Shown here: positions 4,400 to 41,427 of the stretch, one piece after another | How the letters are laid out: every line of letters starts with the position of its first letter | Numbering within the stretch: position 1 is the stretch's first letter | IMG/VR virus record: IMGVR_UViG_3300025151_008277 | Location: 63,117-127,116 of that record | Length of the DNA: 64,000 nt | Strand: one strand, 5' to 3' | From: a virus | Notes under the pieces: model-generated | The model's input: the letters and a program-made list of their open reading frames with translations, nothing else | What the model was told of the DNA's origin: nothing | Database searches by the model: none | Made by a program: the position numbers and the translations under genes

Positions 4400-5050
4400 A
4401 TGGAAGTTAACTTAGTTTCAATTACTAAACCAGAAATTAAATTTGATACTGAAGGAACGGCTGAAGATTTAATCGCTTACTGTGCTCGAGTCTCTAATCC
4501 CACTAATCAACACAATACAGCAACTGCACCTAAGCTTTTAGGTTACCTTATTAAACATAAACATTGGTCTCCTTTTGAGATGGTTGATATGTGTCTAGAA
4601 ATTAAAACCTCTAGAGCAATTGCAGCTCAAATTTTACGACATCGTTCTTTTTCTTTTCAAGAGTTTAGTCAGAGATATAGCAACGCTACAAATTTAGAAG
4701 ATATTACTTGGCGTCTACAAGGTAAAACTAATAGACAAGTCGGTGAAGAGACATATTATTTGGATGATGTAAACCAAGATATTATTGATCAACATCTCAA
4801 ACTATCTACTACGTTATATAATGATTTAATTGATAAAGGAGTAGCAAAAGAGTGTGCTCGTATGATTTTACCTTTGTGTACTGAGACTACTATGTATATG
4901 AAAGGATCAATTAGATCTTGGGTACATTATATTGATTTAAGATCTAAAGAAGACACCCAACAAGAACATAGAGATATTGCATTGAAATGTAGAGATATTT
5001 TTGTAAATAATTTTCCTAATACTTCTAAAGCATTAACATGGACTCAGTAG
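4400..5050 (+). CDS. thyX: Flavin-dependent thymidylate synthase
   Basis: HWSPFE, QILRHRSFSFQEFSQRY signature, KECARMILP; start at ATG 4400 after TTGACT-N15-TATAAT-N6. Confidence 0.96.
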   Translation: MEVNLVSITKPEIKFDTEGTAEDLIAYCARVSNPTNQHNTATAPKLLGYLIKHKHWSPFEMVDMCLEIKTSRAIAAQILRHRSFSFQEFSQRYSNATNLEDITWRLQGKTNRQVGEETYYLDDVNQDIIDQHLKLSTTLYNDLIDKGVAKECARMILPLCTETTMYMKGSIRSWVHYIDLRSKEDTQQEHRDIALKCRDIFVNNFPNTSKALTWTQ

Positions 5051-5793
5051 GTGTAATAATTCTCACAAAAGATAACTTTGATGTAATTAAAAGATGCTTA
5101 GATTCTTTTGTAGAAAAAAATACCTATGATAATATTAATTTTTATATTGGGGATACCGGGTCAAGCCAGAATAATTTAGATAAATTATACGAATATGTTA
5201 AAGAGTTTAAATATACTACTAGAGTTATAAAATTTAATTATTATAATTTTGCAAAAAATAATAATTGGATAGTCAACAACTTAATAAAAGAGCGTTTCAT
5301 TTTATTCTGTAATGATGATATTGAACTTATTAACGACTCATTAACTAATTTAGTTAATAACTGGTCTGAAGATTTGGGAACCGTGGGCTGTAAGTTACTC
5401 TTTTCTAATAATCTTATACAGCACGCTGGCCAAATACACGTTATGTCAGGCTCTGACCCTATTGGTGCTACTCACAAGTTATATAACGAAAAAGATAGAA
5501 AGTTAGATATAGAATATAATGCTGGCAATACTTTTGCATTTTGCTTAACAACTAAAAAAGTATTTGATACGGTTAATGGCTTAAATACAAACTTTAAAAC
5601 ATGTTTTGAAGATGTAGCTTTTAATATATCTTGCTCTCAGGTAGACTTAAAGCATAAATTTGTCGGAACTACCTCGTGTTACCATCATGAAAGTGTTTCT
5701 CGTAAGAAAAGTAAAAATGATTATATAGCAGAAAATGATTCTCTTTTATTAATGTCGTTAATGAGAAAATTTTATAAAAATAAAACAAAGTAA
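5038..5793 (+). CDS. Glycosyltransferase family 2
   Basis: GDTGS, NFAKNNN, LFCNDD, IQHAG, FEDV, HHES. Confidence 0.85.
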   Translation: MDSVGVIILTKDNFDVIKRCLDSFVEKNTYDNINFYIGDTGSSQNNLDKLYEYVKEFKYTTRVIKFNYYNFAKNNNWIVNNLIKERFILFCNDDIELINDSLTNLVNNWSEDLGTVGCKLLFSNNLIQHAGQIHVMSGSDPIGATHKLYNEKDRKLDIEYNAGNTFAFCLTTKKVFDTVNGLNTNFKTCFEDVAFNISCSQVDLKHKFVGTTSCYHHESVSRKKSKNDYIAENDSLLLMSLMRKFYKNKTK

Positions 5794-5794
5794 T

Positions 5795-7111
5795 ATGAAA
5801 ACTTTAAACAATTTATTTGATCAAAACACTAAACCTTACCTGCTTATTGGCAAAGGCCCGTCGTTTAATATAATTGATAAAATTTTATTAAACAAGTACT
5901 TCACAATAGCATTAAATCATGCAGTAGAAAACACACAATGTGATGCTGTCTCTATTATTGATATAGATGTTGTTAGAGATTGCCCTGAAGCAATATACCG
6001 CAATGCTAAAACTCTTATAATACCGTGGCATCCTCATGATAAAAATAATAATTTTCAACCGTGTAGTAAAACTATCGTAGATTATTGTAAGGAAATAAAG
6101 GTTTTAGGAGATATGCTTGCTGAGGGTAGAATACACTCCTATAATGCTAGTAGCGCAAAAGCTTTTAACTTTGAAGACAATAAAGAACTACCTAACTATA
6201 ATGTTTTTATTAATAACGGAGACAGTATATTCACTATGCTAGTAGCTAACAATAATAAAAAAATATATTCTATTGGTATTGACGGTGGTACAACATATAG
6301 TAGTTCGTTTTCTAATTATAAGCCTGGTGGTAATGGTCGAAGCTTTGAAGAGAGTTTAGCGGTCATTAAGAAGGTAGAAGAACAAAGTAATGCTGAACTT
6401 ATTAGATTAGGGGAATTAGAAGAAATAAAAGTATTTGTAGGTTGTTCTGAAGCAGAGCTCGTACCTACTAAAGTATTAGAATATTCAATAAAGAAAAACA
6501 CTAATAATCCTGCATCTATTATTCCGTTATTTCAATGTGATACTAAACATAGAGTGCCTCAGAACCCTCAATGTCGACCTAGAACTCCGTTCTCTTTTCA
6601 AAGATTTTTTATACCTTCTCTGACTAGCGGTAAAGCATTTTATTTTGACTCTGATATGCTGGTCTTTAAAGATATGGCAGAGTTACTCTCTTATGATTTT
6701 GAAGGGTATGACGCCTTGTCTTGTAAAGACATGAATATATACGGTCATTGGAAAGGTTCTGAGTATGCAGTATTAATGCTCGATTGTGATAATATTAAAT
6801 GGGATATCAACTCTATTATTGATGATTTAGATTCTGGTAAACTTACATACGAAAAATTAATGTTTGATTTTGCCATGGCTAAAGTAAATCCGGTTTTTGA
6901 TCCATCGTGGAATAGTCTTGATACATACGAGGAAAATAAAACAGCAAATCTTCACTATACTAATATGAACACGCAACCATGGCGACATAATGGTAGTCCG
7001 TATATGAATTTGTGGTTCAAATATTTAAAAGAAGCAGTAGATAATAATATTTTATCTAAAGAGTTAGTAGTAAGTCATGGCCAAAAAGGTCATATAAGAA
7101 AATTTAAATAA
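5795..7111 (+). CDS. Two-domain protein: N-terminal GxGPS (GT29/MAF-like) domain fused to a GT8-like glycosyltransferase
   Basis: N-term LIGKGPS/ALNHA/IGIDG; C-term KVFVG, TPFSFQRF, YFDSDML, WNSLD, LHYT..QPW. Confidence 0.7.
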   Translation: MKTLNNLFDQNTKPYLLIGKGPSFNIIDKILLNKYFTIALNHAVENTQCDAVSIIDIDVVRDCPEAIYRNAKTLIIPWHPHDKNNNFQPCSKTIVDYCKEIKVLGDMLAEGRIHSYNASSAKAFNFEDNKELPNYNVFINNGDSIFTMLVANNNKKIYSIGIDGGTTYSSSFSNYKPGGNGRSFEESLAVIKKVEEQSNAELIRLGELEEIKVFVGCSEAELVPTKVLEYSIKKNTNNPASIIPLFQCDTKHRVPQNPQCRPRTPFSFQRFFIPSLTSGKAFYFDSDMLVFKDMAELLSYDFEGYDALSCKDMNIYGHWKGSEYAVLMLDCDNIKWDINSIIDDLDSGKLTYEKLMFDFAMAKVNPVFDPSWNSLDTYEENKTANLHYTNMNTQPWRHNGSPYMNLWFKYLKEAVDNNILSKELVVSHGQKGHIRKFK

Positions 7112-7112
7112 T

Positions 7113-7805
7113 ATGATAGGTATCAATTTAAGTAAGAAAATATTAAACGAAGTTAATAACTTATTACCATGGCATACCAAAACTAATATTTCTAGAGATA
7201 TAATTTTAGGCAAATCTCAAAATTCTAATAAAAGAAATTATATTGAGAAAATACCTGATGATAGAATTACTAATTTAGATAGCTTAATTAATTTATCTGA
7301 TAAAACAGTACTTGAGATGGGTTGTCTTGAAGGTTCTCATACCTTAGGTTTACTGCAATATGCGAAAGAAGTTGTTTCTATTGATTGTAGACCGGTTAAC
7401 GTTATTAAAACTTTAACTCGTTTGAGCTTTCATGGTAAAACTTCCCGAGTTTTTTGTTTTAACGCAGATGACTTATCAGTAGATAATTATGGTTTTTATG
7501 ATGTTATATTTCACTGCGGTGTTTTGTATCACCTTAAAGATCCTATATCTCATTTAAATAATATTTTTAAAATGTGTAACTATATATTTTTAGATACACA
7601 CGTTACAGAAGGTTCTAATAAAATAGTACCTGAAAATAATTGGAAAGCTCCGTTTGCTGGTAAAGATGATACTGCTTTGTGGTTAAATGTGGATGAGCTA
7701 GAAAAAATTTGTACTGATAATAGTTTTACTGTTAATAAACTTGAAAGAAGAGATGAGCGTAATGGTCTTAGAATATCTTGGTTACTAGAAAAAAATGAAA
7801 AATAA
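7113..7805 (+). CDS. Class I SAM-dependent methyltransferase (CmoB/DUF1698-like)
   Basis: VLEMGCLEG motif I, YDVIFHCGVLYHL. Confidence 0.82.
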   Translation: MIGINLSKKILNEVNNLLPWHTKTNISRDIILGKSQNSNKRNYIEKIPDDRITNLDSLINLSDKTVLEMGCLEGSHTLGLLQYAKEVVSIDCRPVNVIKTLTRLSFHGKTSRVFCFNADDLSVDNYGFYDVIFHCGVLYHLKDPISHLNNIFKMCNYIFLDTHVTEGSNKIVPENNWKAPFAGKDDTALWLNVDELEKICTDNSFTVNKLERRDERNGLRISWLLEKNEK

Positions 7806-8157
7806 ATTAGGTAAAATATGGGGTAATACCTTTCCTCTTTTTAATAAAAACAATGTAGAGATACATAGAATTGAAATTAATAAAGGAGGTTTTTGCAGTA
7901 AACATAAGCATGTATATAAGTATAACTGTTTTTTTGTGGAGACAGGTAAGCTTAAAATTTCTGTATGGAAGAATGATTATGATCTTAAAGATATAACAAT
8001 TCTTAACAACAAAGAATCTACAATTATACCTCACGGAGAATATCATCAGTTTGAAGCATTAGAAGATACTATATGTTATGAGATTTATTGGGTAGAATTA
8101 AATGAAAACGATATAGTAAGAGACAATCACGGAGGTAACATAAATTATGAAACATAG
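7795..8157 (+). CDS. Cupin (sugar isomerase/epimerase-like)
   Basis: KIWG, CSKHKH, FFVETG, IPHGEYHQF. Confidence 0.78.
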   Translation: MKNKLGKIWGNTFPLFNKNNVEIHRIEINKGGFCSKHKHVYKYNCFFVETGKLKISVWKNDYDLKDITILNNKESTIIPHGEYHQFEALEDTICYEIYWVELNENDIVRDNHGGNINYET

Positions 8158-8893
8158 AGTTGCTATTTGTCTATCTGGCTTAGTAGGCAATAGCAAAGGT
8201 AAAAGTCATGACCACGAAGACGACGACTCTAAAGTTCTAGAATTATCTATACCGCATTGGAACTTTTTTACATCAAATTATGAATGTGATTATTTCATTC
8301 ATACTTGGTCCGGTCATTTAAAGCAAGATATTATTAACGGATTAAAACCTGTTGATATCATAACACAAGATCAACCATCGTTTGATATACCTAAATATGT
8401 GCCTGGTTCTTTTGAGAGAAAACATGCTCACTGGTGTAGATGGTTTTCTATAAAAGAATCTGTGAGATTAAAACAAGAGCATGAAGAAAAGAATAATATA
8501 CGTTATGATAGTGTTATAGTTTCTAGATTTGATTTAGCTTGGGCTAAACAAATCGATTTTAAATATCTCGATATGAACAAAATGTGGTTACCTAGATGGT
8601 TTGAGAACGGTAATCTTGTTGACCCTATAAACTACAAATGCAAAGATTATTGGTTTCTTTCTTCATCCAAAAATATTGATAAATTTTCTTCTCTTTACGA
8701 CTCCTTAAACACCTATACAAAAACTGGAGCTTGTCGTATTAATACTGCAATGGGAGTATCTAGTCACTACTTAGCTGCATATCACATAAAAAATCTCGGT
8801 ATTGAAGTTGGCCATGTTTTAGAAGCTCGAGATAATTTTTTAAATTGCGACTTTCCCGTTATAAGATTTAAATACTTTTCCGCAAATATTTAA
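8147..8893 (+). CDS. Putative glycan-active protein (xAICLSG family)
   Basis: RVAICLSG, FIHTW, YDSVIVSRFDL; same pattern as 14435..15490. Confidence 0.55.
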   Translation: MKHRVAICLSGLVGNSKGKSHDHEDDDSKVLELSIPHWNFFTSNYECDYFIHTWSGHLKQDIINGLKPVDIITQDQPSFDIPKYVPGSFERKHAHWCRWFSIKESVRLKQEHEEKNNIRYDSVIVSRFDLAWAKQIDFKYLDMNKMWLPRWFENGNLVDPINYKCKDYWFLSSSKNIDKFSSLYDSLNTYTKTGACRINTAMGVSSHYLAAYHIKNLGIEVGHVLEARDNFLNCDFPVIRFKYFSANI

Positions 8894-8921
8894 TTGAGTT
8901 TTTATTTTTATATCTTATAAT
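8894..8921 (+). promoter_or_regulatory. Sigma70-type promoter for the sugar core operon
   Basis: TTGAGT-N16-TATAAT-N8-ATG. Confidence 0.6.
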
Positions 8922-8929
8922 TTAGCGTA

Positions 8930-9397
8930 ATGAGTACATACCAACATAGTGATAAGTGGATCGAAGAAGCTCTTAATCAATATAAAGATAAGATTGATAA
9001 CAAAAAAGATCATCGTTTAGATGTTAGTTCTTATAAAGTAGAAAAGCCGTGGGGTCATGAAGTATGGTTAGAATTAAATGAGTTCTATGCATATAAAATC
9101 ATTCATATGAAAGCGGGTAACCAAAGTAGTCTTCAATGGCACGAAAAGAAAGTAGAGACTAATTATGTAATTGAAGGAAAAGCTGAGGTATTGCTACAAA
9201 ATGAGAAAGGTGAAATCGACTCTAAAATTTATGAAGCTGGTTCCGGTTGGTCAGTGCCTCTCCAAACTAAACATAGAGTAATCGCTATTACAGATTATAC
9301 CGCACTTGAAGTATCTACACCTCATCTAAATGATTGTATACGTTTTGAAGATGATAGTAATAGATCTAGTGGTAAAATCGATTCAGAGCATAGCTAA
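8930..9397 (+). CDS. Cupin, mannose-6-phosphate isomerase (type II C-terminal)-like
   Basis: VEKPWG, SSLQWHEKKVET, HRV, LEVSTP, RFED. Confidence 0.82.
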   Translation: MSTYQHSDKWIEEALNQYKDKIDNKKDHRLDVSSYKVEKPWGHEVWLELNEFYAYKIIHMKAGNQSSLQWHEKKVETNYVIEGKAEVLLQNEKGEIDSKIYEAGSGWSVPLQTKHRVIAITDYTALEVSTPHLNDCIRFEDDSNRSSGKIDSEHS

Positions 9398-9400
9398 TAT

Positions 9401-10936
9401 ATGCCTAAAGTATGTATATTAGCAGCAGGTATAGGTTCAAGGAATAAATGTATTGAGGGCTTACATAAAGCTCTCTTACCCTTGAATAATAAACCTGTTA
9501 TTTCTCATATAATTGATTCATTTCCTCAAGATATGGAAATAGTCATTGCTCTTGGGTATAAACAAAAGCAATTACTTTCTTATTTAGAAGAAGTACATAC
9601 TTCTAAAAATATTACTTATGTTACTGTAGATAATTTTGATAAATCTGGATCAGGTCCCGGATATAGTCTTTATCAATGTAAAAACCATTTACAAGAGCCG
9701 TTTATTTTTACTTCAGTAGATACTTTATTAGATGAGTTTCCTGTAAGCGTTGATAGTAATTGGATCGGTACTTCTAATATAGATGAAAAAAAATCTTCTA
9801 GTTATTGTTTAGTTTCAGTAGATAACGAAACCGTAAAAGATTTATATTACGGTAGTGGTAATTTAGCTTTCGTTGGAACTGCTGGTGTTAAGGATTATAA
9901 GACATTTTGGAATAATTTAGAAAAAACATTATTATCAGTTAACGAAATACAAGTTATACCTGCATTACAGAGTCTTACTAATATTAAGGCTATTAATTCT
10001 GTATGGTATGATACTGGTAACATAGAATCCTATTACAATACTAAAAAGGTATATAATAATGATATTGTAGCCCCTAAAAATAACGAAACAATATTTTTAG
10101 ACAATAATCTCGTAATAAAATACTTTAGTAATTCTAAAAAGAACTTAAGTCGAGTTGAACGAGTTAAATTCTTAAACGATTGTACACCAGATACAACATA
10201 TCTTAATGACAACATGTATTGTTATGAATATATTAATGGAGCTCTATTAAGCAATATTACTAACGTTGAGATTATGAGAGAGTTTTTTAGTTTTTGTGAT
10301 AGTAAACTCTGGTTAAAGAAAAATAGAGATGATATTTTTATTAGTAATTGTAGGTCTATGTATGAATTCAAAACTAAATCTAGGATAAATGAATTAATAG
10401 ATAGTGATTTAGATAAAATACGATTTATTAACGGGCTTGAGGTACAACCTATTAGAACAATTTATGAAAAAATAGGTTGGGGACAAATTTATAATAATGC
10501 TTTACCGGTTTCTTTTCACGGAGACCTACAACCAGAAAATATTATATACAATAATGAGAGATTTTTTCTTATAGACTGGAGAGAGTCTTTTGGTAACAGT
10601 CTTGAAGTGGGGGATATATATTACGATCTATCTAAACTGTATCATGGTTTAGATATTAACGGTACTTTAATGAATAGTAAAAATTATTTTTATAACATTG
10701 AAGATAAATCTGCCAATATAGGATACAACATAAAGAGTAATTTGATCGATCTTAAAGACACACTCAAAACTTTTGTTATTGAAAAAGGTTTGGATTGGTA
10801 TAACATAAGATTGTTAGGTGCATTGCATTATTTGAATATTTGTACATTATATAAAGACTTTCATAACGGAGAGTATGGTAGGTTTTTATTTCTTTATAGC
10901 AAATATCTTTTACAAAACATCTTGCAAAACAAATAA
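9401..10936 (+). CDS. Sugar nucleotidyltransferase fused to an APH/choline-kinase-like phosphotransferase
   Basis: N-term ILAAGIGSR, HKALLP, WYDTG; C-term FHGDLQPENI, LIDWR, YYDLSKL. Confidence 0.85.
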   Translation: MPKVCILAAGIGSRNKCIEGLHKALLPLNNKPVISHIIDSFPQDMEIVIALGYKQKQLLSYLEEVHTSKNITYVTVDNFDKSGSGPGYSLYQCKNHLQEPFIFTSVDTLLDEFPVSVDSNWIGTSNIDEKKSSSYCLVSVDNETVKDLYYGSGNLAFVGTAGVKDYKTFWNNLEKTLLSVNEIQVIPALQSLTNIKAINSVWYDTGNIESYYNTKKVYNNDIVAPKNNETIFLDNNLVIKYFSNSKKNLSRVERVKFLNDCTPDTTYLNDNMYCYEYINGALLSNITNVEIMREFFSFCDSKLWLKKNRDDIFISNCRSMYEFKTKSRINELIDSDLDKIRFINGLEVQPIRTIYEKIGWGQIYNNALPVSFHGDLQPENIIYNNERFFLIDWRESFGNSLEVGDIYYDLSKLYHGLDINGTLMNSKNYFYNIEDKSANIGYNIKSNLIDLKDTLKTFVIEKGLDWYNIRLLGALHYLNICTLYKDFHNGEYGRFLFLYSKYLLQNILQNK

Positions 10937-10960
10937 TTTAGAATAAAATATTTAGTAAAT

Positions 10961-11605
10961 ATGAATACGGGAGATTATATAGATTTATACAAAAAAGAAT
11001 CTATCGATATTGTTAACAATGTTTCTAGCGCTTCAATAGAGCAGTTTATTAATTTAATCTATGAAGCTTATACAACTGAAAATACAGTTTATCTTGCAGG
11101 TAACGGAGGTAACGCTGCGTACGTACAGAATTTCGTTGTTGACCTAAACATGCATCCGTTTGTTTCAGAAGATAAATCATCTAATTCTAGTATACCTCGT
11201 AATTTATTTAAATCTGTTAGTCTTTGTAGTGATCCCGCAACTATATCAGGTATAAGTAATGATTTAGGATTTAATTCTATCTTTAAAGAGCAAATGAAAT
11301 ATCAAGGTATCCGAAATGATATCTTTATTGGTATTTCCGGTTCAGGTAATTCTAAAAATATTCTTGAAGCTATGGAGTTCAATTCTCGTAAAGGTATAAA
11401 AAATATTTTACTTACGAGAAATAAAGAAAATAAATGTAATGAGTTCGCAGATTTAACTATTAGTGTTGACGGCGTTTCTAAATTCCCTGGCCAAACAGGT
11501 GGTAATAATAATAACTTTCATTTTGAAGATTTTATTTCTAAGCTGTCTCATATCACTGTAGGTATTTTAAAATTAAGAGTACAGCAAAGGATACAAAATG
11601 CTTAA
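10961..11605 (+). CDS. gmhA: SIS-domain phosphosugar isomerase (GmhA-like)
   Basis: LAGNGG, ISNDLGFNSIF, ISGSGNSKN; the active-site segment is divergent (NAAYVQN). Confidence 0.75.
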   Translation: MNTGDYIDLYKKESIDIVNNVSSASIEQFINLIYEAYTTENTVYLAGNGGNAAYVQNFVVDLNMHPFVSEDKSSNSSIPRNLFKSVSLCSDPATISGISNDLGFNSIFKEQMKYQGIRNDIFIGISGSGNSKNILEAMEFNSRKGIKNILLTRNKENKCNEFADLTISVDGVSKFPGQTGGNNNNFHFEDFISKLSHITVGILKLRVQQRIQNA

Positions 11606-12359
11606 ACCAAACATATTACGCAAAAAAGTTTTAGATTTAGTCTATAAAAAGAAATCTGGTCATATAGGTGGTAGTTTTTCTATTGCAGAGCTTATATGTA
11701 CTTTATATAATGATTATAATATCGGAGAAACTGATAAGCTTATTTTATCTAAAGGTCACTCTGTACCTATTGTTTATGCCGCCTTACATGAGTTAGGTTT
11801 AATTAGTGATGATGATCTTGATAAGTTTAGAGAGATAGACTCTCCCCTTCAAGGTCACCCTGATAAAAATAGGTTAAAACATCTCCACGCTACTACAGGC
11901 TCTCTCGGCCAAGGCTTAAGCATCTCCGTCGGCCATGCTTTAGCTAAAAAGCATAAAAAACTTAATGGTACTGTTTTTTGTATATTAGGCGACGGAGAAA
12001 TTCAAGAAGGTCAGGTATGGGAGGCATTTTTATCTGGTTCCAAATTTAACTTAGATAATCTTGTATGTTTTATTGACTGGAATAAAGCTCAAAGCGAAGG
12101 ATTTGCTTCTGATGTTATGCCGATGTATGAAAATTTAACCGAAAAAATATCATCTTTCGGTTGGCATAGCGTTTTAATAAATGGTCATAATATATACGAT
12201 ATTAAAAGTAGTATAGATAATAGAGTTAAAGATAAGCCTACTTGTATTGTACTCGACACAGTTAAAGGTAAAGGTGTTTCTTTTATGGAAGAACCTAAAT
12301 GGCATTCTAAGTGCCCTACAGAAGAAGAATATAATAAAGCAATAAAGGAGTTATTATGA
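11598..12359 (+). CDS. Transketolase, N-terminal (TPP-binding) subunit
   Basis: GHIGG, LSKGH, LQGHP, TGSLGQG, GDGEIQEGQVWE, TVKGKG. Confidence 0.93.
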   Translation: MLKPNILRKKVLDLVYKKKSGHIGGSFSIAELICTLYNDYNIGETDKLILSKGHSVPIVYAALHELGLISDDDLDKFREIDSPLQGHPDKNRLKHLHATTGSLGQGLSISVGHALAKKHKKLNGTVFCILGDGEIQEGQVWEAFLSGSKFNLDNLVCFIDWNKAQSEGFASDVMPMYENLTEKISSFGWHSVLINGHNIYDIKSSIDNRVKDKPTCIVLDTVKGKGVSFMEEPKWHSKCPTEEEYNKAIKELL

Positions 12360-13276
12360 AAGCAACAAGAGATGCAGTAAATGATATTCTACCACAAGCA
12401 GGAGAGAAGCACTCTAACATAGTTGCGTTAGATGCCGACTTAGGCGGAGCTACTAAGATAAAAGCTTTTGGTCAGAAATACCCTGATAGATATTTTCAAG
12501 TAGGTATTGCCGAAGCTAATATGATTAGTATTGCTTCAGGTATGTCTGAATATGGCCTCAAAGTATTTTTAGCTTCTTTTAGTGCTTTCCTTACTGGTAG
12601 ATATGATATTATACGTTGTAGTATATGTTATCCTAATCAACCAGTTGTTTTAGTTGGTAGTCATGTTGGAATGGCTATAGGTAAAGATGGTGTTACTCAA
12701 ATGGGTCTTGAAGATGTTAGTATAATGCGCGCATTACCTAATATGAATATTTTAAATCCATGTAATTATACACAGGCTTGTAAAGTTATTGAGTATCTTT
12801 GTGATACTGAACTCACTCAACCACATTATTTACGTATTGGTAGAACACCTGTAGAAGATTTTGATATAGATTTTGAGTTTAATAAAGGAGTGATCGTTAG
12901 ACCGGGTAAAGATGTAACTTTGTTTAGTACGGGTTGTATTTTGAGTGATGTATTAGAAGCTTCTTACATTATTGAGCGAAATACTAATTTATCTGTACGG
13001 GTAGTAGACTTCTCTACTTTAAAACCTATAGATAAAAAATTAATATATAAATGCGCCACTGAAACTGATCATCTATTTACAGTCGAAGATCATTCCATAG
13101 TAGGCGGCTTAGGATCGATAGTTTCCGAAGTATTATGTGAAACATATCCTGCAAAATTACATAGAATAGGATTGAATGATCAATTCCCTGAATCAGGTCC
13201 TCCAGCAGACTTGTATAGCAAATATGGTTTGAATGCAGAAGGTATAGCAAATTCTGTATGCAGTAATATTAGCTAA
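12356..13276 (+). CDS. Transketolase, C-terminal subunit
   Basis: LDADL, VGIAEANM, DGVTQMGLED, TLKPID, VEDHSIVGGLGS. Confidence 0.93.
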   Translation: MKATRDAVNDILPQAGEKHSNIVALDADLGGATKIKAFGQKYPDRYFQVGIAEANMISIASGMSEYGLKVFLASFSAFLTGRYDIIRCSICYPNQPVVLVGSHVGMAIGKDGVTQMGLEDVSIMRALPNMNILNPCNYTQACKVIEYLCDTELTQPHYLRIGRTPVEDFDIDFEFNKGVIVRPGKDVTLFSTGCILSDVLEASYIIERNTNLSVRVVDFSTLKPIDKKLIYKCATETDHLFTVEDHSIVGGLGSIVSEVLCETYPAKLHRIGLNDQFPESGPPADLYSKYGLNAEGIANSVCSNIS

Positions 13277-14073
13277 TGTTAATAGACAATAAGACCAAAT
13301 TATTTTTCTCAGCAGCTATGTCTCCAGGTAATTTTGGAGCTACTGTATATAATTCTCTTTTTAATCACTATCAAATTAATGCAGTTTACCTTCCAAAGAG
13401 ATTTGATAACGCTGAGTCGATTATTACAGCGTTATCTGTTTTAGATATACAAGGCTGCAGTATCACTATGCCTTTCAAGAGCGATGTTCTTAAATTCTTA
13501 GATGTAACTAATGATATAGTTGACAATACCTTTTCAGTAAACACTATAGTTAAAAAAGAAGATAAGCTGTATGGATATAATACAGATTATTTTGCGGTTC
13601 AACAAATAATTAAATCTCTAGACTTTAAAACAGTTTTAGTTTATGGATCTGGATCAGTTACTAATACAGTAATTCACTGCTTGATAAAAAACGGTATAAA
13701 ACCGACTGTTGTATCTCGCAATAAGGAGGCATTAAAAAATATATATTGTAGGTATTATGTTGAAGCAATATATGAGAAAGATTTTGTTGTAGAAAATAAT
13801 GCATTTGATCTTTTAATAAATTGTACACCAGTAAGTAACAACGAAGATTCCTTTCCGTTCGAATTATTAAAGGTATGTAATCAATTATTTGACTTAGTAG
13901 TGGATAAGAAGGAGACTAGGTTATGCGAAGTTGCGAAACAAAATAAAAAGAAGTATATTAAAGGGTGCGACATGTCAAAATGGCAGCTACAAAATCAATT
14001 CTTGCATTATATTGGATTTGCTCCTAATATGGATATAATAAATCGTATACTTAACAGTCAGTTCTATGAATAA
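13276..14073 (+). CDS. Shikimate dehydrogenase-like oxidoreductase (SdhL/HI0607-like subclass)
   Basis: SITMPFK, VNT, GYNTD, YGSGS, INCTP; N-term has PGNFG instead of the AroE SxSP. Confidence 0.8.
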   Translation: MLIDNKTKLFFSAAMSPGNFGATVYNSLFNHYQINAVYLPKRFDNAESIITALSVLDIQGCSITMPFKSDVLKFLDVTNDIVDNTFSVNTIVKKEDKLYGYNTDYFAVQQIIKSLDFKTVLVYGSGSVTNTVIHCLIKNGIKPTVVSRNKEALKNIYCRYYVEAIYEKDFVVENNAFDLLINCTPVSNNEDSFPFELLKVCNQLFDLVVDKKETRLCEVAKQNKKKYIKGCDMSKWQLQNQFLHYIGFAPNMDIINRILNSQFYE

Positions 14074-14434
14074 CGACCATCGCCCTTATACTATTTTTTG
14101 TGACATTGACGGTACTTTAACTAAACAGGCAACAGCTAGTGAAGTAGCTAACCCTGAGTTTGTTTTAGAGCTATTACCAGGTGTGATACAGAAACTAAAA
14201 GAGTGGGACCAAAAAGGGTATAATATTATTCTTACTACCGGGAGGAAAGAAAGTATGAGATTTTCTACAGAGTCTCAACTAAAACGCGCAGGCATTTTTT
14301 ATGATAAGCTTATTATGGGTATAGGTGGTGGTAAGCGCTTTCTTATAAATAACTTCAAAAGAGATAGCGATATACCGTACGCTAGTAGTATCAATATACC
14401 TATTAACACAGGATTAACTGATATTGAGATTTAA
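14066..14434 (+). CDS. Capless HAD-family phosphatase
   Basis: FCDIDGTL, LTTGR, YDKLIMG. Confidence 0.8.
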   Translation: MNNDHRPYTIFCDIDGTLTKQATASEVANPEFVLELLPGVIQKLKEWDQKGYNIILTTGRKESMRFSTESQLKRAGIFYDKLIMGIGGGKRFLINNFKRDSDIPYASSINIPINTGLTDIEI

Positions 14435-15490
14435 TTATCTTAAATCTTCTATATTTTTAGTTAAGTCTTCTATTGCTCCTTTATACCCTTTGTATTTAAA
14501 AATATCTTTCTCGCGAAAGAACTCTACAACTCTACCATAATTGAGTTTATTCTCTCTTGTAAAATCACATATAAACCTATTCATTTCATCTAACCATATG
14601 TGATAATATCTCATGGCTTCTGGGTCTGTATTTTTATCATGCTTTTTATAGTAGTACTCTCGAGCTACAGCCCAATCGATAATAAAGGTATGCTGAAAGC
14701 TTATTTGGTTTTTGAGCCCAAAATAACCCCATCTTATTTCTGGCGGTGCATGTCTTAAACTAGCCCAGTATTCATCCCATATGTTAGGATGGTTATCTCT
14801 TTTATTAGCGAGAATATCGGCTGACATTACTGTCATATTTTTATGGTATTGGTCCATTGCTCGCGGTTCCCCACCAAACATTTGATCACCTATTTGTAGA
14901 ACCCCCTTTCTCACATCTATATATGGTATACCTATTACTGATTCAAACTCCGCTCTGTTATTTACATACTTAACCCAGTCATAAAAATAATTCTTATGAA
15001 ACCTATGATCAAATTTTCCATTATACCAATAAAAATCAGGTCTTATCCTCACAACATAATCATATTCAAAGTCGTTTTCTAATTCATATTGTCTTCTCAG
15101 CTCAAGAACTCTCTCAGCTTGATAAAATTGACCGAAATACATATAATTCCAATGCTTCGCGGCTTGTAAATCGTCTTTATCAGATATGTTTTCTTCTATT
15201 ATTTTTCTTATACCTTCATCGTCTGATTCAATCTTCATTGAAACAGGTTTAATAACATTTTTAACATTGTCTATAACTGCACTAGGAAGCTTTTCTGTGT
15301 GCGGGTCACCTGCAATATCTGCAAAAAGAGTATGTTTACGAGTTATGTAATCAGGAGCGTATATAAAATAATCGATTTGAGAGTCATAATAAAAATAATC
15401 AAAGGTTTCTTTTATATTTTCCAACGTTAAATGAACATCTCTCAACTGAGAGCTAATACACACTGCTAATCTGTTAAGTTTTTTTACCAT
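14435..15490 (-). CDS. Putative glycan-active protein (xAVCIS family)
   Basis: RLAVCISSQLR, YDYVVRIRPD, GDQMFGG. Confidence 0.55.
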   Translation of the reverse strand: MVKKLNRLAVCISSQLRDVHLTLENIKETFDYFYYDSQIDYFIYAPDYITRKHTLFADIAGDPHTEKLPSAVIDNVKNVIKPVSMKIESDDEGIRKIIEENISDKDDLQAAKHWNYMYFGQFYQAERVLELRRQYELENDFEYDYVVRIRPDFYWYNGKFDHRFHKNYFYDWVKYVNNRAEFESVIGIPYIDVRKGVLQIGDQMFGGEPRAMDQYHKNMTVMSADILANKRDNHPNIWDEYWASLRHAPPEIRWGYFGLKNQISFQHTFIIDWAVAREYYYKKHDKNTDPEAMRYYHIWLDEMNRFICDFTRENKLNYGRVVEFFREKDIFKYKGYKGAIEDLTKNIEDLR

Positions 15491-15492
15491 TT

Positions 15493-16548
15493 CTAAAAAT
15501 AATCTGATATGTTACCTTTTTCTAGTTTATCATACTCTTGTATATTTTTAAGTACGTTCAAAAAATCGTTATGCGATGGATGTCTCTTATCGAAAATATC
15601 ATGTTTCATAAAATCTATAGGAGTAAATGTGCCCCAGTTAACTATTCTTGAAGTAGCGCATCTAAAATTATACTTTCGAGCTATATCTAAAAATTGAGGT
15701 ATTGTTTTATAGTTATTATATTGTACAACCATATCCAATCTCACATCTTCTACTTTACCTTCTTTTTGTAATTTGCTTATAAATTCTAAATTTTGATTGA
15801 CATTATTCCAGTTACCACCTACTCGAGTTAAATTATAAGCTTCTTCTGTACCTGCATCAAGACTAACGATAACATCTACATGAAACTTATGTAAGTTTTG
15901 TAGGCCTTCCCATCTTTTTTCATTAAAAAGAACACCGTTAGTTTGTAACGTTATATGTAATAGAGGGTTCTTGCTATAATTTAATTGCTTCAAAAGATCA
16001 AAAAAGTGTTTCGAACCAAAAGGGTCTCCAGACCCGGTAACAATTAAGTTAATTAGCTTTTTTTCTGAATGTACATACTTAAGAACAGCTTTATTTATTT
16101 CAGTTAATTTGTCAAATTGTTTTTTATGCGTTTCTTTCGTATAATATATAAAATCATTTCTACAAGAAGGACACTTCAAATTGCATGATCTATCATAACA
16201 TAAGTTTATAATATCTGGTTTATCTGCTTGGGTTAAACCAAATTCTAATATTGTAGAAAATTTAGATCCTATTTTACCTGATCTTACTTCATTCAACGTA
16301 GGTAAGGAGTTACTCGCTATATCCGGGCATAATTTCTTATTACAGTACTTAAAACTTCCATCAAGAATTGACCTTCTAAATTCTTTTGCTTTTTCTCCGT
16401 TCCAAACCCCTTCAATATCTAAATCATCTGTAGTCTTACCAACGTAATTATGATTTACCCATGTAGGACAACAATTATAAATTTCATTCTCTTGTATTTC
16501 AAAAAACCCCCATGGTTTGTAGCAAAATTTATCTTTTAAATCAATCAT
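15493..16548 (-). CDS. Radical SAM protein with N-terminal SPASM/twitch-like Cys domain
   Basis: CNLKCPSC, GSGDPF, QTNG, SLDA; N-term CYKPW..CC..WNG..YC. Confidence 0.85.
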   Translation of the reverse strand: MIDLKDKFCYKPWGFFEIQENEIYNCCPTWVNHNYVGKTTDDLDIEGVWNGEKAKEFRRSILDGSFKYCNKKLCPDIASNSLPTLNEVRSGKIGSKFSTILEFGLTQADKPDIINLCYDRSCNLKCPSCRNDFIYYTKETHKKQFDKLTEINKAVLKYVHSEKKLINLIVTGSGDPFGSKHFFDLLKQLNYSKNPLLHITLQTNGVLFNEKRWEGLQNLHKFHVDVIVSLDAGTEEAYNLTRVGGNWNNVNQNLEFISKLQKEGKVEDVRLDMVVQYNNYKTIPQFLDIARKYNFRCATSRIVNWGTFTPIDFMKHDIFDKRHPSHNDFLNVLKNIQEYDKLEKGNISDYF

Positions 16549-16604
16549 ATGTTGTTGATATTTTCAGAATATACTATAATTTATATAAGAGATAGCTAAA
16601 AGCC

Positions 16605-16958
16605 ATGGAAATTACATATAATAGCGAAACAATTACCCTAAATGAGGAGAAATTCGAAGATATTGAGTATTTTGACATAAAAACCCCAAAAACAATCACC
16701 GACGACGGGTCTGAAATTTATTGGTGTCCGTTTGAGTGGGATTGGCGCATAATTAATCATAAAGATCAAATGGAAAAGCGGTTTAAGAATTGTATGAAGA
16801 CAATTTATTTTACCGAGAAAGTATTTTTAGTTGAAAAGAAGTCAATGCGCAAGCACTTCAAAGACGGTAAATTAGTTGATGTGTGCCTATTGCCAATTGG
16901 TATCTATGTATATTGGGATAATGATACTGAGGAATGGTCTTTTCTTGGTTATAAGTAA
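16605..16958 (+). CDS. Hypothetical protein
   Basis: 117 aa ORF, coupled (TAATG) to the next gene. Confidence 0.6.
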   Translation: MEITYNSETITLNEEKFEDIEYFDIKTPKTITDDGSEIYWCPFEWDWRIINHKDQMEKRFKNCMKTIYFTEKVFLVEKKSMRKHFKDGKLVDVCLLPIGIYVYWDNDTEEWSFLGYK

Positions 16959-17905
16959 TGCCTTCATGTAGAATTTACTATTGGGATAACGGGGTTGGAG
17001 TTAAAACTGATGCAGCTCTTATTTCTGAATGCTTAAGTAAGAAATTTGAGTGCGAGATATTCGATTTTTCTTATTCAGAATGTAATGAAAATTATTTTAA
17101 TTATACAGTAGAAAAAAAGCCTGTCGATGTTGGTATTTTTGTACAAAATTATTATACAGATTTACTGTCCGATAATAAAATCAATATTTTAATTATTAAT
17201 GAAGAGTGGTTAGCTTTTGAAGACTTAGATGGTCTTAAAAATTTCGACCACGTTATAGTTAAAAGCGAGTACGCAAAAAAATTATTATTCGAAGCTCATC
17301 CGAGTATTCATGTTTTGCATTTTTGGTCGAGAGATCTATATTCAGATTACTACTCTGGATTTAAAAATAATGACGTACTTCATTTCGCAGGTAAGTCTAT
17401 GCAGAAGAATACTGAGAGTGTTATTAATAACACTGATATACATATATTTGACAGTAACGGTCGTTTTAAAGATGTAAGAACCGAAAAATATTATTATAAT
17501 TTTATTTCCGATAACAAGTTACAGCGAGTTTTTAACGTATGTGATACTCACATATGTCCTTCATTATATGAAGCTCATGGACATTATTTTTTCGAAGCAT
17601 TATTATGCAATAAAAAAGTTATAGCATCTAAATGTCCGGTATGGGAAGAAATAATTGATCCCGAATATTTAGTTTTTGTTGAAACAAGTGCTTGTGTTAT
17701 AAGTAGCTCTGATCATGATTGGCTTAACGGTGAGCAATCTCAAGGTAAATTTACTAAGTTTCCATTTAGAAGAGGATTTATAGTACAATCTGAAGCTATA
17801 AATGCGGCTTTAGAAAGTAGTAAATTTAAAAAACCAAGAAAGTATATCCTAGATTTATTTTCTAACAATCAAAAAAAGTTTTTTGACTTTTTTACAAACC
17901 TATAA
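16958..17905 (+). CDS. GT-B glycosyltransferase (GT4-like)
   Basis: NEEW, HFAGKS.QKNT, HICPSLYEAHGHYFFEA. Confidence 0.75.
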   Translation: MPSCRIYYWDNGVGVKTDAALISECLSKKFECEIFDFSYSECNENYFNYTVEKKPVDVGIFVQNYYTDLLSDNKINILIINEEWLAFEDLDGLKNFDHVIVKSEYAKKLLFEAHPSIHVLHFWSRDLYSDYYSGFKNNDVLHFAGKSMQKNTESVINNTDIHIFDSNGRFKDVRTEKYYYNFISDNKLQRVFNVCDTHICPSLYEAHGHYFFEALLCNKKVIASKCPVWEEIIDPEYLVFVETSACVISSSDHDWLNGEQSQGKFTKFPFRRGFIVQSEAINAALESSKFKKPRKYILDLFSNNQKKFFDFFTNL

Positions 17906-18805
17906 TAATTTATTATATAAATTTTTAAGCTCAAAAAACTCTTCATTATCTAGATTATATTTGTTTGTAAGTTGATCTAAAGAATTTATACATTCCTCTA
18001 CACTAAACTTTATAAGATTCATATCCTCTATTTGTCTTAAAGTGGTTATAGAAGAAATATGATTAAAATTTATCGTATGAATTTTCTTTGAGTAGTGTTG
18101 AAGTACATTTGAACTCTTTAAAATAAAATCTATACCATTATGATGGTATAAATGATTCAAATTTTTTTTAAAAAATCTATTAATTAAAAATAAACTATTT
18201 ACTTCTTTTTTTAAAAACCTACTAATTACTCGAAATTTTTCTTTAAAAGGATTTATAATCTTTACTATACTTTTTCGTTTATTTTTTAAAGGTAGTTCTG
18301 TAATTGAAGTTAAAAAAGAGTTTACCGAGCTTTTAGATACTAAAAAGTATTTGTTAAAATCTTCTTTAGTTATGTAAAATAGAGAATGATTACTCTGAAT
18401 AATTATATCTTTACCTACATAATTGGTCTTACTTATTAAATCTGCGTAAAACCAATCCCATATATAAAGGTAGCTTTCTTTATATAAAATTTTATCTTCT
18501 ATTTTATTAATAATTAAATCATCATCATCTTGACTATAAAATAATATATCTTCCTCTATTTTATTAGACATAAAATATGTAAGAAAATCCATATAATTAT
18601 AAAACACTAAATCAAAGTTTTGTTTAATTATATTTCTTATTACGATATCTCTAATTTCAGATCGAAAATCCCAGTAATCATATTGTAAGGAGTTTTCCCA
18701 ATCTTTAATTTTTTCTTCAAGTATTATTTTATTTTGTTTACCATACGTAAACTCTCTACCCGCAATATAATCCTTACTACCTCTTATTAAACAAACTTTT
18801 ATCAT
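17900..18805 (-). CDS. Hypothetical protein, possibly GT-A-like
   Basis: 301 aa very AT-rich ORF with YSQDDDD acidic motif. Confidence 0.45.
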   Translation of the reverse strand: MIKVCLIRGSKDYIAGREFTYGKQNKIILEEKIKDWENSLQYDYWDFRSEIRDIVIRNIIKQNFDLVFYNYMDFLTYFMSNKIEEDILFYSQDDDDLIINKIEDKILYKESYLYIWDWFYADLISKTNYVGKDIIIQSNHSLFYITKEDFNKYFLVSKSSVNSFLTSITELPLKNKRKSIVKIINPFKEKFRVISRFLKKEVNSLFLINRFFKKNLNHLYHHNGIDFILKSSNVLQHYSKKIHTINFNHISSITTLRQIEDMNLIKFSVEECINSLDQLTNKYNLDNEEFFELKNLYNKLL

Positions 18806-19626
18806 TTTATATTCTTTAATATTTCTTTATATTCGATTTGCTGACAAGGTATTTGTTTAATTATATCTGTCCGTTTACATTTATTCCAAGAAGCACACCC
18901 TACGCAATAAATTAAATCCTTTAAAATCTTCATATTATTATCTGGAAATAGTAAGTTTACATTATTTGATTGGCTTAATGTAATAATTTTTTTATTGTAA
19001 CCGTTAGCTATGTGGAGCGGTCCTGTTACAGGTGTGATGATTGTATCACATAAGTATATAAACGTAGTTATATCTAATACATTGTTGATTGGTAATTTAG
19101 GTATATTTGTTTTATCATAATCTAGTATAAAAGAGGTGCCGGGCAAGTTTTCTGCTGTCTTCTCCATAATATGTATAGGTATCTTTCTAGTAATATCACT
19201 ATAAGACCCGTGTACAAATATATACCACGGTTTTTTAAAATTTTCTAGATATTTTGTTTTTTCAATAACTTTATCTTTATAAATTTTTAACTCAGGTTTT
19301 TGTATTTTATAATCTATTTTTTTGTTATGCTTTTTTAAAAAATTATTAGTTTTATTTATCCAATATTTTGGTTCTGCATCTTTTCGAGTAAGAGTATTGT
19401 TAATATTAACATATTCATATACACCATCATAATCAATATCTATTCTCCCTTCGTATTCATTAGTGTGATATACATTAGTAATATATGGAGATAGCAGACC
19501 TACTTCTTTATATTGTTCTGAAACTATTAAAGTAACTTCATAACCAATACTAACAAGTTTTTCCGCTACTATAAAAGTAGTAATTATATCACCGATCGCT
19601 CCTGACCTCTTTAAAGTTATATTCAT
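18802..19626 (-). CDS. Glycosyltransferase family 9 (heptosyltransferase-like)
   Basis: RSGAIGD at the N-terminus, TGPLHIA, C-terminal Cys cluster; start moved to ATG 19626. Confidence 0.8.
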   Translation of the reverse strand: MNITLKRSGAIGDIITTFIVAEKLVSIGYEVTLIVSEQYKEVGLLSPYITNVYHTNEYEGRIDIDYDGVYEYVNINNTLTRKDAEPKYWINKTNNFLKKHNKKIDYKIQKPELKIYKDKVIEKTKYLENFKKPWYIFVHGSYSDITRKIPIHIMEKTAENLPGTSFILDYDKTNIPKLPINNVLDITTFIYLCDTIITPVTGPLHIANGYNKKIITLSQSNNVNLLFPDNNMKILKDLIYCVGCASWNKCKRTDIIKQIPCQQIEYKEILKNIK

Positions 19627-19642
19627 TTGTGTATATAATATT

Positions 19643-20425
19643 ATGGTAGTATTCGCTAATATTAAAACAGATCCGGAGAATTTCAATAATACTGGAAACC
19701 GTTTCTGTACTCCTTACATTTATTATAAATTCCCATTTGATTGTACTCATAGGTGTATTGTTGGGGATTCTTTTAATGAAGAAGAGTATCCGTTAGTTTT
19801 AGGCGGTGGTGGAATGTTCCAAGGTTGGTTTATTGATAATGTATTTCCTAAATTTAAAAATAAAATAAAAATAGTATGGGGATCCGGTACTAATTACCAC
19901 CATACTAGTGAATATATTTTACCAGAGTTCCTCAACAAGTGGGATATGGTAGGTGTGAGAGATAAAGAGACAGATTTTTTTCGTAATAACAATATTGAGT
20001 ACGATTGGGTGCCCTGTGTTAGTTGTAAAAATGAGTTATTTGATATTTCGTATACTTCAAAGCACGATATTGTTATCTATGAGCACTTACACGCTCCTAT
20101 TGATATTGATTTTTTACCTAATGCTCCAAAGCTTAATAATATAGGAGGTAATCTCGAAGAGAAAATTAATTTTATAGGATCAGGAGATATTGTTATTACT
20201 AATTCCTATCACGGAGCCTACTGGGGATTACTTTTAAATAAAAAGGTTATTATATATAAACCATTTGCAAATAGATATCTTTATTTCCCATGGGATATAA
20301 GTATAGCTCATGAGTGGGATATTAAAGATACAATAAAGTCATGCACTAGTTTTAATATTCTACAAGAGTGTAGAGAAGCTAATGATGATTTTTATCAAAG
20401 AGTTTGCAATCTTATATTAAACTAA
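19643..20425 (+). CDS. Polysaccharide pyruvyl-transferase-like protein
   Basis: NTGN, LGGGG, WGSG, GVRD, TNSYHG. Confidence 0.75.
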   Translation: MVVFANIKTDPENFNNTGNRFCTPYIYYKFPFDCTHRCIVGDSFNEEEYPLVLGGGGMFQGWFIDNVFPKFKNKIKIVWGSGTNYHHTSEYILPEFLNKWDMVGVRDKETDFFRNNNIEYDWVPCVSCKNELFDISYTSKHDIVIYEHLHAPIDIDFLPNAPKLNNIGGNLEEKINFIGSGDIVITNSYHGAYWGLLLNKKVIIYKPFANRYLYFPWDISIAHEWDIKDTIKSCTSFNILQECREANDDFYQRVCNLILN

Positions 20426-30596: not shown

Positions 30597-30615
30597 TTTA
30601 CAATAAATAATTATG

Positions 30616-30765: not shown

Positions 30766-30766
30766 A

Positions 30767-41394: not shown

Positions 41395-41427
41395 ATAAAT
41401 ACTTATTAGGAACCTAAATAATTCTAT

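Follow-up and report, generated by a model that had tools for sequence, protein, structure and literature searches.

The window analyzed here is a 64,000-nucleotide stretch of DNA that corresponds to bases 63117-127116 of the 127,116-base IMG/VR virus record IMGVR_UViG_3300025151_008277, for which CheckV gives a completeness of about 61%. The phage is a marine, T4-like myovirus, and the gene under study encodes a 265-residue protein of the shikimate dehydrogenase (SDH) family, referred to as P0001. An earlier note made from the sequence alone had described P0001 as an orphan shikimate dehydrogenase of the SdhL/HI0607 type that might oxidize or reduce a sugar or cyclitol intermediate. SdhL was recognized as a class of the SDH family some twenty years ago, and to our knowledge no physiological substrate is known for it. 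We found that P0001 is SdhL-like and is not an AroE, that the linkage of its gene to a set of sugar genes recurs in phages and bacteria, and that it probably acts within the sugar-nucleotide pathway encoded by this set.

The P0001 gene starts with ATG and is the eleventh gene in a plus strand run spanning positions 5038-14434 (Table 1). Its start codon overlaps the stop codon of the transketolase C-terminal half (TAATG), and at its other end it runs 8 nt into the gene for a small HAD phosphatase (ATGAATAA); the overlaps with both neighbors fit a single operon. A scan for promoters and terminators remained at chance level (71 found vs 72.9 expected). The genes between 8930 and 14434 encode, besides P0001 and the phosphatase, a mannose-6-phosphate isomerase (PMI)-type cupin, a fusion of a nucleotidyltransferase with a kinase of the APH/choline-kinase fold (NT/kinase), a GmhA-like SIS isomerase and a transketolase split into two genes. 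We defined as cassette-linked those SdhL-like genes that lie a few kb from an NT/kinase fusion and a PMI-type cupin, accompanied by SIS/transketolase genes or a GatZ-like gene, and P0001 belongs to this subfamily.

Profile and structure searches placed P0001 in the SDH family near SdhL. Among the Pfam models, that of the substrate-binding domain (PF08501) matched with 42.5 bits, above its cut-off of 27, and that of the NAD(P) domain (PF01488) with 19.9 bits, below its cut-off of 24.3. The best NCBIfam model was NF009202 (PRK12550, the SdhL equivalog) with 148.7 bits, below the cut-off of 306, and the aroE model TIGR00507 reached 123.7 bits, below the cut-off of 200.2. The PRK12550 model aligned to P0001 from residue 3 onwards, while the AroE models started at residues 21-24 (residue 21 for TIGR00507). 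Aquifex AroE (95.7 bits) and HI0607 (95.2 bits) were tied in a sequence search of the PDB. The AlphaFold2 model of P0001 (mean predicted local distance difference test, pLDDT, 94.2) had the HI0607 structure 1npy as its top Foldseek match (E 8.4e-25, template modeling score 0.84-0.86), with AroE structures ranking lower, and on the basis of this model and its matches P0001 has the SDH fold. All 12 other cassette-linked relatives scanned likewise stayed below the PRK12550 cut-off (127.6-262.2 bits), NF009202 being the top model for nine of them and the second for three. Genome matches of about 30% identity from Enterobacter, Pantoea, Commensalibacter, Mycolicibacterium and Microbacterium scored 423-457 on NF009202 in five of five cases. 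Each of these five genomes contains a second, AroE-like gene, which exceeded the aroE cut-off in three of them, and the two sets served as canonical SdhL and AroE references.

Closer examination of the alignment revealed which active-site residues are shared with AroE. Where AroE carries H-S-x-S-P (four of five AroE-type rows; the fifth reads S-F-S-K), P0001 reads S-P-G-N-F-G with a two-residue gap. Each of the 17 SdhL-superclade rows, that of P0001 among them, shows this gap and the pattern P--(S/G)N(F/I)G, and the SdhL-type N-terminus M-I-N-K-x-T..S..P-x-N-x-G is common to them too. The equivalent of an AroE Tyr near the C-terminal domain was absent from the same 17 rows (Val in P0001); we take this Tyr and the SxS motif to be the binders of the shikimate carboxylate. 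Residues K68, D104, N89 and Q237 of P0001 align with the AroE Lys/Asp pair, Asn and Gln and are invariant in 17/17 close relatives; in AroE the Lys/Asp pair is catalytic, and the Asn and Gln contact the ring hydroxyls. The nucleotide-binding loop is G124-S-G-S127, in which G124, G126 and S127 are invariant in the 17 closest relatives. R148, which follows strand beta-2 and is invariant among close relatives, occupies what we assume to be the position of the Arg of the NRT motif in NADP-type AroE, and a probable NADP(H) site is predicted from these residues. The N-terminus quoted in the earlier note, as well as the missing SxSP motif and the GSGS loop it described, were borne out by the translation and the alignment.

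Phylogenetic analysis separated P0001 from AroE. A quick tree of 85 rows was built with 36 cassette-linked loci (39 listed minus three that failed a 150-residue coverage filter), 21 of 62 cassette-less genome loci hand-picked across taxa, three short metagenome contigs, six metagenome proteins and 18 AroE-type rows, and it divided AroE-type sequences from an SdhL superclade with 99 SH-aLRT support. In a careful tree of 54 rows the same split was supported at 100/99 with P0001 on the SdhL side; the clustering with AroE that the earlier note had named as one part of a refutation was not seen. P0001 fell into a clade of 13 rows (100/98) consisting exclusively of cassette-linked genes, and the canonical SdhL clade (nine rows, 100/99) excluded it. 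The viral 'mini' forms described below made up one clade (100/100) that joined the canonical clade at 92/82, which we treat as weak support, and the other cassette-linked forms were not resolved at the base of the superclade. P0001 is SdhL-like yet lies outside the PRK12550 equivalog, as its score below the cut-off and its place outside the canonical clade indicate. The resemblance to SdhL/HI0607 noted earlier is therefore upheld by the best model, the top structural match, the N-terminal motif and the superclade, with the refinement that membership in PRK12550 itself is not.

The linkage to sugar genes was observed well beyond the window. In SDH-based searches, cassette genes were present beside the SDH gene in 3/3 viral, 20/22 metagenome and 18/80 genome loci; the two metagenome contigs lacking them measure just 1.25 and 1.3 kb. 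Canonical-type matches account for the 62 cassette-less genome loci; five of these were confirmed on NF009202, and 18 of the 21 included in the tree fell into the canonical clade. The viral scan gave no match with P0001 alone and three loci with an alignment. Because the linkage recurs across viral, metagenome and genome loci, the sugar link is no accident of the window. Pfam annotation of 148 neighbor proteins from 11 loci revealed two versions of the cassette, both within polysaccharide loci, the bacterial ones carrying flippases, ABC transporters and glycosyltransferases. The first version has the SIS and transketolase genes found in the window. In the second, a GatZ/KbaZ-like protein replaces SIS and transketolase, usually together with a 180-residue HAD protein and often with a 380-residue methyltransferase. 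A role in sugar modification of DNA was considered and dropped, as the bacterial loci are polysaccharide loci.

Viral loci were also collected through the NT/kinase, using the best 80 of 377 IMG/VR relatives from an alignment search. SIS plus transketolase were present in 23 of these 80 loci and a GatZ-like gene in 54, with both in one locus and neither in four. A cupin homologue adjoined the NT/kinase in 72 loci, small HAD homologues (41-60% identity) occurred in 53, and an SDH-like gene was detected in 42. Of the 23 transketolase-type loci, 19 contain the SDH gene and the remaining four are contigs that end too early; among GatZ-only loci it was found in 23 of 53. In 22 of these 23 GatZ-only loci with SDH a cupB-type cupin is fused in frame to the NT/kinase (the 23rd is truncated), whereas this fusion was seen in none of the 30 GatZ-only loci without SDH (0/30). 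The fused cupins are 48-56% identical to the window cupin, and in the 30 loci without SDH the cupin is at most 42% identical to it or absent. The constant partners in the cassette are thus the cupin and the NT/kinase fusion, and transketolase is replaced by a GatZ-like gene in most loci. The coupling to transketolase and a HAD phosphatase, on which the earlier note had relied, holds as a linkage, but not with transketolase as a constant partner. Fusions between NT/kinase and GatZ/KbaZ-like domains (P0321, 903 residues; P0353, 907 residues) were also observed, and loci with this fusion or the PMI-type cupin-NT/kinase fusion include L158, L161, L163 and L167. Such natural fusions support a single shared pathway for the cupin, the NT/kinase and the GatZ-like protein.

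The cassette is present in uncultured phages, both marine and freshwater, as well as in diverse bacteria, many of them uncultured; all 18 cassette-bearing genome loci come from metagenome-assembled or single-amplified genomes. At E <= 1e-20 the NT/kinase family has 952 members, including proteins of DPANN archaea and of bacteria of the candidate phyla radiation (CPR) as well as two fusions to GatZ-like domains; for DPANN and CPR the evidence concerns the NT/kinase protein only. NT/kinase clusters in the Atlas are 72-100% viral in the rows listed, except for two bacterial clusters. One bacterial cluster bears the Atlas name 'WeoK', and literature under that name proved unrelated. Among 50,697 GenBank phage records a single NT/kinase match was found, in an uncultured marine virus, and blastn of window positions 9000-15000 against GenBank phages gave no match. 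In tblastn against GenBank phages, P0001 matched 27 records (all <60% identity); the annotated ones fall under bacterial shikimate-dehydrogenase genes, and we read these matches as bacterial rather than phage homologues.

The SDH gene itself followed a different pattern from its neighbors. The cupin, NT/kinase, SIS, transketolase and HAD proteins of the window are 41-76% identical to their counterparts in transketolase-type phage loci, whereas identity between P0001 and the mini SDHs in these and other viral loci reaches only 25-35%. Its nearest relatives (41-44%) are SDHs encoded directly 3' of the NT/kinase in L005, L006 and L008. Since the cassette neighbors match one group of loci and the SDH another, the SDH looks like a part that is interchangeable between both cassette versions and would do the same job in each; its step would then be independent of the route by which the carbon skeleton enters. 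Most viral SDHs are mini forms of 205-235 residues with large deletions in the nucleotide-binding domain, which retain K, N, D, G-x-G-G, R and Q..Q-F and may be the smallest members of the SDH family.

Table 1. Features of the window and of the compared loci (positions refer to the window unless a locus is given).
Feature	Position	Strand	Evidence or remark
P0001, SdhL-like shikimate-dehydrogenase-family oxidoreductase	13276..14073	+	PF08501, NF009202, AlphaFold2/Foldseek, trees
PMI-type cupin 'cupB' (type II mannose-6-phosphate-isomerase C-terminal-like)	8930..9397	+	PF01050 7.1e-8, Cupin_2, TIGR01479 GMP_PMI C-terminal part
Nucleotidyltransferase (N-terminal)/APH/choline-kinase-fold kinase (C-terminal) fusion, 511 aa	9401..10936	+	NTP_transf_3
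GmhA-like SIS isomerase (sedoheptulose-7-phosphate isomerase-like)	10961..11605	+	TIGR00441 gmhA 80.3 bits (cut-off 209)
Transketolase N-terminal half (thiamine-diphosphate (TPP)-binding)	11598..12359	+	PF00456 1.7e-36; NF004559 247 bits
Transketolase C-terminal half (pyrimidine-binding plus C)	12356..13276	+	PF02779, PF02780; NF004559 242 bits
Small HAD phosphatase, 122 aa	14066..14434	+	PF03767, PF25109; HAD-IIIA/IIB NCBIfam matches below cut-off
Upstream genes: GT2, GT8-like, methyltransferase, WbuC-like cupin, DUF7796-like protein (8147-8893)	5038..8893	+	
Rest of glycan island: GT1, two unknowns, polysaccharide pyruvyl transferase and the two genes below	14435..20425		
DUF7796-like protein	14435-15490	-	
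Twitch-domain radical-SAM protein	15493-16548	-	NF033640 99 bits, below cut-off
Mini SDHs of viral loci	L136, L142, L144, L152, L156, L167 (4341-4985), L186 and others		
Cassette SDH of L040	10001-10810		better AroE elsewhere in genome
Cassette SDH of L038	10001-10798		better AroE elsewhere in genome

The GmhA-like isomerase matched phosphoheptose isomerases of the PDB (3e-14 to 1e-11). The strongest matches of the nucleotidyltransferase half were sugar-1-phosphate nucleotidyltransferases (Arch_glmU 4.6e-11, AglF 4.9e-8), with weak PDB matches to mannose-1-phosphate guanylyltransferase and inositol-1-phosphate cytidylyltransferase (E 0.0067 for the latter). Homologues of the fusion matched APH (PF01636), and its motifs G-x-G-x-R and H-G-D..N..D-W-R are invariant (alignment A2). 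Complex prediction for P0001 and the cupin gave a score of 0.05 against a mark of 0.32, which counts neither way. Homologues of the DUF7796-like protein encoded at 8147-8893 accompany the cassette in 30 of the 80 viral loci, and for this reason the protein may be a transferase that uses the cassette product.

With a rough probability of 0.6, judging from gene content and conserved residues, we propose that P0001 acts outside the shikimate pathway as an oxidoreductase on an intermediate of the cassette's sugar-nucleotide pathway. As an oxidoreductase of the SdhL lineage, the enzyme would interconvert a secondary alcohol and a ketone with NADP(H) and carry out a redox (tailoring) step on the way to a nucleotide-activated sugar for the neighboring glycosyltransferases. 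An NDP-heptose-like product is envisaged because the isomerase, kinase, phosphatase and nucleotidyltransferase together parallel the enzymes of GDP-heptose synthesis. In the order inferred here, the split transketolase would provide more sedoheptulose-7-phosphate, the GmhA-like isomerase would convert it to an aldoheptose-7-phosphate, the APH-fold kinase would add the anomeric phosphate, the HAD enzyme would strip the distal phosphate and the nucleotidyltransferase half would form the NDP-heptose. P0001, probably together with the PMI-type cupin, would oxidize or reduce one ring or side-chain carbon via a keto intermediate and could thereby set a configuration beyond the reach of the plain pathway. 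The more specific assignment of P0001 as a heptose-tailoring enzyme is tentative. In the second cassette version the GatZ-like protein is a candidate aldolase or, following what is reported for Agrobacterium, a ketose-phosphate 4-epimerase.

Several observations weigh against this proposal. The SDH gene is missing from 30 of the 53 GatZ-only loci, so the pathway runs without it there, which makes the SDH step optional and leaves it without a definite place. The cassette contains no conserved enzyme that makes a keto sugar beforehand, and the SDH would therefore have to oxidize as well as reduce, or use a ketose. The proposed route also gives no reason why the cassette should encode a SIS isomerase and a PMI-type cupin, both of them isomerase-like. 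In a 1.3-Mb Omnitrophica metagenome-assembled genome (G008) the cassette copy was the sole AroE-like gene found. The basal cassette-linked SDHs of L040 and L038 exceeded the aroE TIGR00507 cut-off of 200.2 (210.7 and 205.5 bits) and that of L041 was just under it (197.0 bits), and judging from these scores some cassette forms might retain shikimate turnover. Finally, the transketolase could supply erythrose-4-phosphate, a shikimate precursor.

The above-threshold relatives, the established formation of erythrose-4-phosphate by transketolase and the SDH fold and catalytic dyad of P0001 are also the points in favor of a different explanation, in which P0001 is a working shikimate/quinate dehydrogenase encoded by an auxiliary metabolic gene that, with transketolase, boosts aromatic amino-acid synthesis in the host. 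We consider this very unlikely in view of the subthreshold aroE score, the loss of the SxS motif and the Tyr equivalent, the position of P0001 within the SdhL superclade, and fixed partners (NT/kinase, cupin and HAD phosphatase) that lie within glycan loci. A separate, higher-scoring AroE-type gene was also present elsewhere in four of the five cassette-bearing bacterial genomes. Pathway partners were missing as well: among the ORFs scanned with Pfam between 3.6 and 22 kb of the window no other shikimate-pathway gene was detected, and searches of the whole 127,116-base record returned 0/1 each for 3-dehydroquinate (DHQ) synthase, 5-enolpyruvylshikimate-3-phosphate (EPSP) synthase, shikimate kinase, chorismate synthase, 3-deoxy-D-arabino-heptulosonate-7-phosphate (DAHP) synthase of the type 1 family and type I dehydroquinase, with dehydroquinase of type II and DAHP synthase of type 2 outside these searches. 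The six family searches returned matches in 7 to 14 of 14 control genomes; the negatives apply to a record that is about 61% complete and are not proven for the entire phage, and the host has its own pathway. Within these bounds, the earlier statement that the window holds no further shikimate-pathway gene agrees with our scans. The cassette SDHs of L040 and L038 would probably be misnamed shikimate dehydrogenase by the aroE threshold, since a better AroE exists elsewhere in both genomes, and cassette members above this threshold in general would be annotated under that name.

The window also offers the parts for a route through an alditol phosphate. P0001 could be an aldose- or ketose-phosphate reductase whose product, for example a heptitol-7-phosphate from sedoheptulose-7-phosphate or aldoheptose-7-phosphate, is activated as an NDP- or CDP-alditol and transferred as a phospho-alditol, in the manner of CDP-ribitol or CDP-6-D-glucitol synthesis or of the path from PMI via mannose-6-phosphate reductase and phosphatase to mannitol. 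PMI-type cupin, reductase and phosphatase are all present in the window, the nucleotidyltransferase half belongs to the MobA-like NTP_transf_3 family and weakly matches IspD as well as ribitol-5-phosphate and inositol-1-phosphate cytidylyltransferases, and in the available part of PMC10918830 an NADPH reductase and a cytidylyltransferase are described that make nucleotide-linked alditols. However, the strongest matches of this half are the sugar-1-phosphate nucleotidyltransferases named above, a kinase plus a phosphatase implies a shift of the phosphate to the anomeric carbon, for which a direct alditol-phosphate route has no need, and the 30 GatZ-only loci without SDH fit tailoring better than a central reduction. 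Some reductases of this kind are reportedly medium-chain dehydrogenases/reductases. Those in the available part of PMC10918830 are short-chain dehydrogenases/reductases (SDRs), and neither group is the SDH family. The alditol route appears rather unlikely on this balance.

Sedoheptulose-7-phosphate is also the precursor of C7-cyclitols, APH-fold kinases often phosphorylate cyclitols, and six-membered carbocycles are substrates of the SDH family. Together with the weak inositol-1-phosphate cytidylyltransferase match of the nucleotidyltransferase half, this would fit a P0001 that oxidizes or reduces a carbocycle of the C7-cyclitol or inositol-like kind, which derives from sedoheptulose-7-phosphate and is later phosphorylated and nucleotide-activated. 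However, DHQ_synthase PF01761, which we take to cover cyclases of the 2-epi-5-epi-valiolone synthase (EEVS) type, was not found in the record, and neither a sugar-phosphate cyclase nor a gene resembling myo-inositol-1-phosphate synthase (MIPS) occurred among the 148 neighbor proteins scanned. With no cyclase found, the cyclitol route was dropped and retains only a slim chance. Of the two kinds of substrate proposed in the earlier note, a sugar is favored by the gene linkage (3/3 viral, 20/22 metagenome, 18/80 genome and 42/80 NT/kinase loci), and nothing supports a cyclitol.

The phage DNA has a GC content of 28-38%. Genes for a portal protein, major head protein, Lon-like protease, ribonucleotide reductase, PhoH and ThyX are present in the window, and the remaining half of the record encodes gp25, tail sheath, T4-type terminase, gp32, UvsY, a RecA-like protein and a family-B polymerase. 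The Lon-like ATP-dependent protease (785 residues, positions 45405-47762; phrog_4871, 548 bits) lies amid structural and replication genes. A DUF366 protein (21430-22026) borders the glycan island, and QueC adjoins a protein with a glutamine-amidotransferase domain at record bases about 49300-50650 (L218:11323-12644). DUF366 and the QueC set suggest a 7-deazaguanine pathway, possibly serving DNA modification. The record further contains a separate second sugar set of an RmlA-like nucleotidyltransferase, a 4,6-dehydratase-type SDR and an RmlD-like reductase (record bases about 30600-31470 and 40900-42840; L217:11616-12467 and L218:2938-4837), which suggests that two or more nucleotide sugars are produced by this phage.

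SdhL and AroE were already known, and the new element is the cassette-tied SdhL-like subfamily, which was not found in open-access papers and bioRxiv, with supplements and subscription journals outside the search. With about 80 related loci sharing the same linkage, this is the first consistent genomic context found for the SdhL branch. It reduces the candidate SdhL substrates to a short list, namely the phosphate and nucleotide intermediates produced by a defined cassette of six genes. The NT/kinase of this cassette, with 377 IMG/VR relatives as opposed to one GenBank phage homologue, marks a sugar-activation module that is common among uncultured phages and has received no study. A wider and speculative possibility is that the SdhL branch consists of sugar-pathway oxidoreductases at its root, that the cassette encodes an undescribed nucleotide-sugar pathway in which a heptose (or hexose) acquires a rare configuration through the joint action of cupin and SdhL-like enzyme, and that orphan SdhL genes such as HI0607 are stranded descendants. 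If true, this origin would explain the poor shikimate activity of these orphans; for HI0607, the turnover of shikimate is reported to be very low and activity on quinate to be absent.

P0001 shares with HI0607 (1npy) the fold, the N-terminal motif with its two-residue deletion, the Lys/Asp/Asn/Gln positions and the superclade, but the two proteins are merely 27-28% identical, the P0001 loop reads G-S-G-S-V compared to G-S-G-G-M in canonical SdhL, and the loop following the I-N-x-T-P strand is shorter in P0001. The genomic contexts differ as well. A comparison of SdhL neighborhoods, as the earlier note had advised, gave a fixed sugar cassette for the subfamily of P0001 and no common neighborhood for canonical SdhL genes across nine loci (35 flanking proteins scanned). 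The canonical SdhL gene of Enterobacter soli lies directly 3' of a Cof-type HAD sugar phosphatase (L088:9116-10810), and in E. coli ST648 sdhL is located just upstream of an L-sorbose phosphotransferase system operon, according to the available part of PMC12817954; both contexts are loose sugar hints for canonical SdhL. P0001 resembles AroE in its two-domain SDH fold, catalytic Lys/Asp and probable NADP(H) site, and differs from it by the absence of the SxS motif and the Tyr equivalent, its score below the cut-off, its position across the 100/99 split and the lack of pathway partners.

With respect to known pathways, the GDP-heptose route described in the available part of PMC10680097 proceeds through a sedoheptulose-7-phosphate isomerase, a 1-kinase, a 7-phosphatase and a guanosyltransferase, and in Campylobacter new configurations are then introduced by a 4-dehydrogenase, epimerases and reductases. 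The GmhA-like isomerase and the HAD phosphatase of the window cassette resemble this part of the route. The cassette differs from the same account in its built-in transketolase or GatZ-like protein and in a redox enzyme of the SDH family rather than an SDR, and the words 'shikimate', 'transketolase' and 'cupin' have 0 occurrences in PMC10680097. A further difference lies in the kinase, which in the cassette is of the APH fold and forms one protein with the nucleotidyltransferase, whereas HddA of the GDP-heptose route is a GHMP kinase. The lincosamide octose-nucleotide route, in which we know of no SDH-family enzyme, employs the transaldolase LmbR, the isomerase LmbN, the kinase LmbP, the phosphatase LmbK and the nucleotidyltransferase LmbO. 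The cassette appears similar to this route in that a chain builder of the pentose-phosphate type precedes a GmhA-like isomerase as well as kinase, phosphatase and nucleotidyltransferase, but the chain builder is a transaldolase in the lincosamide route and a transketolase or GatZ-like protein in the cassette.

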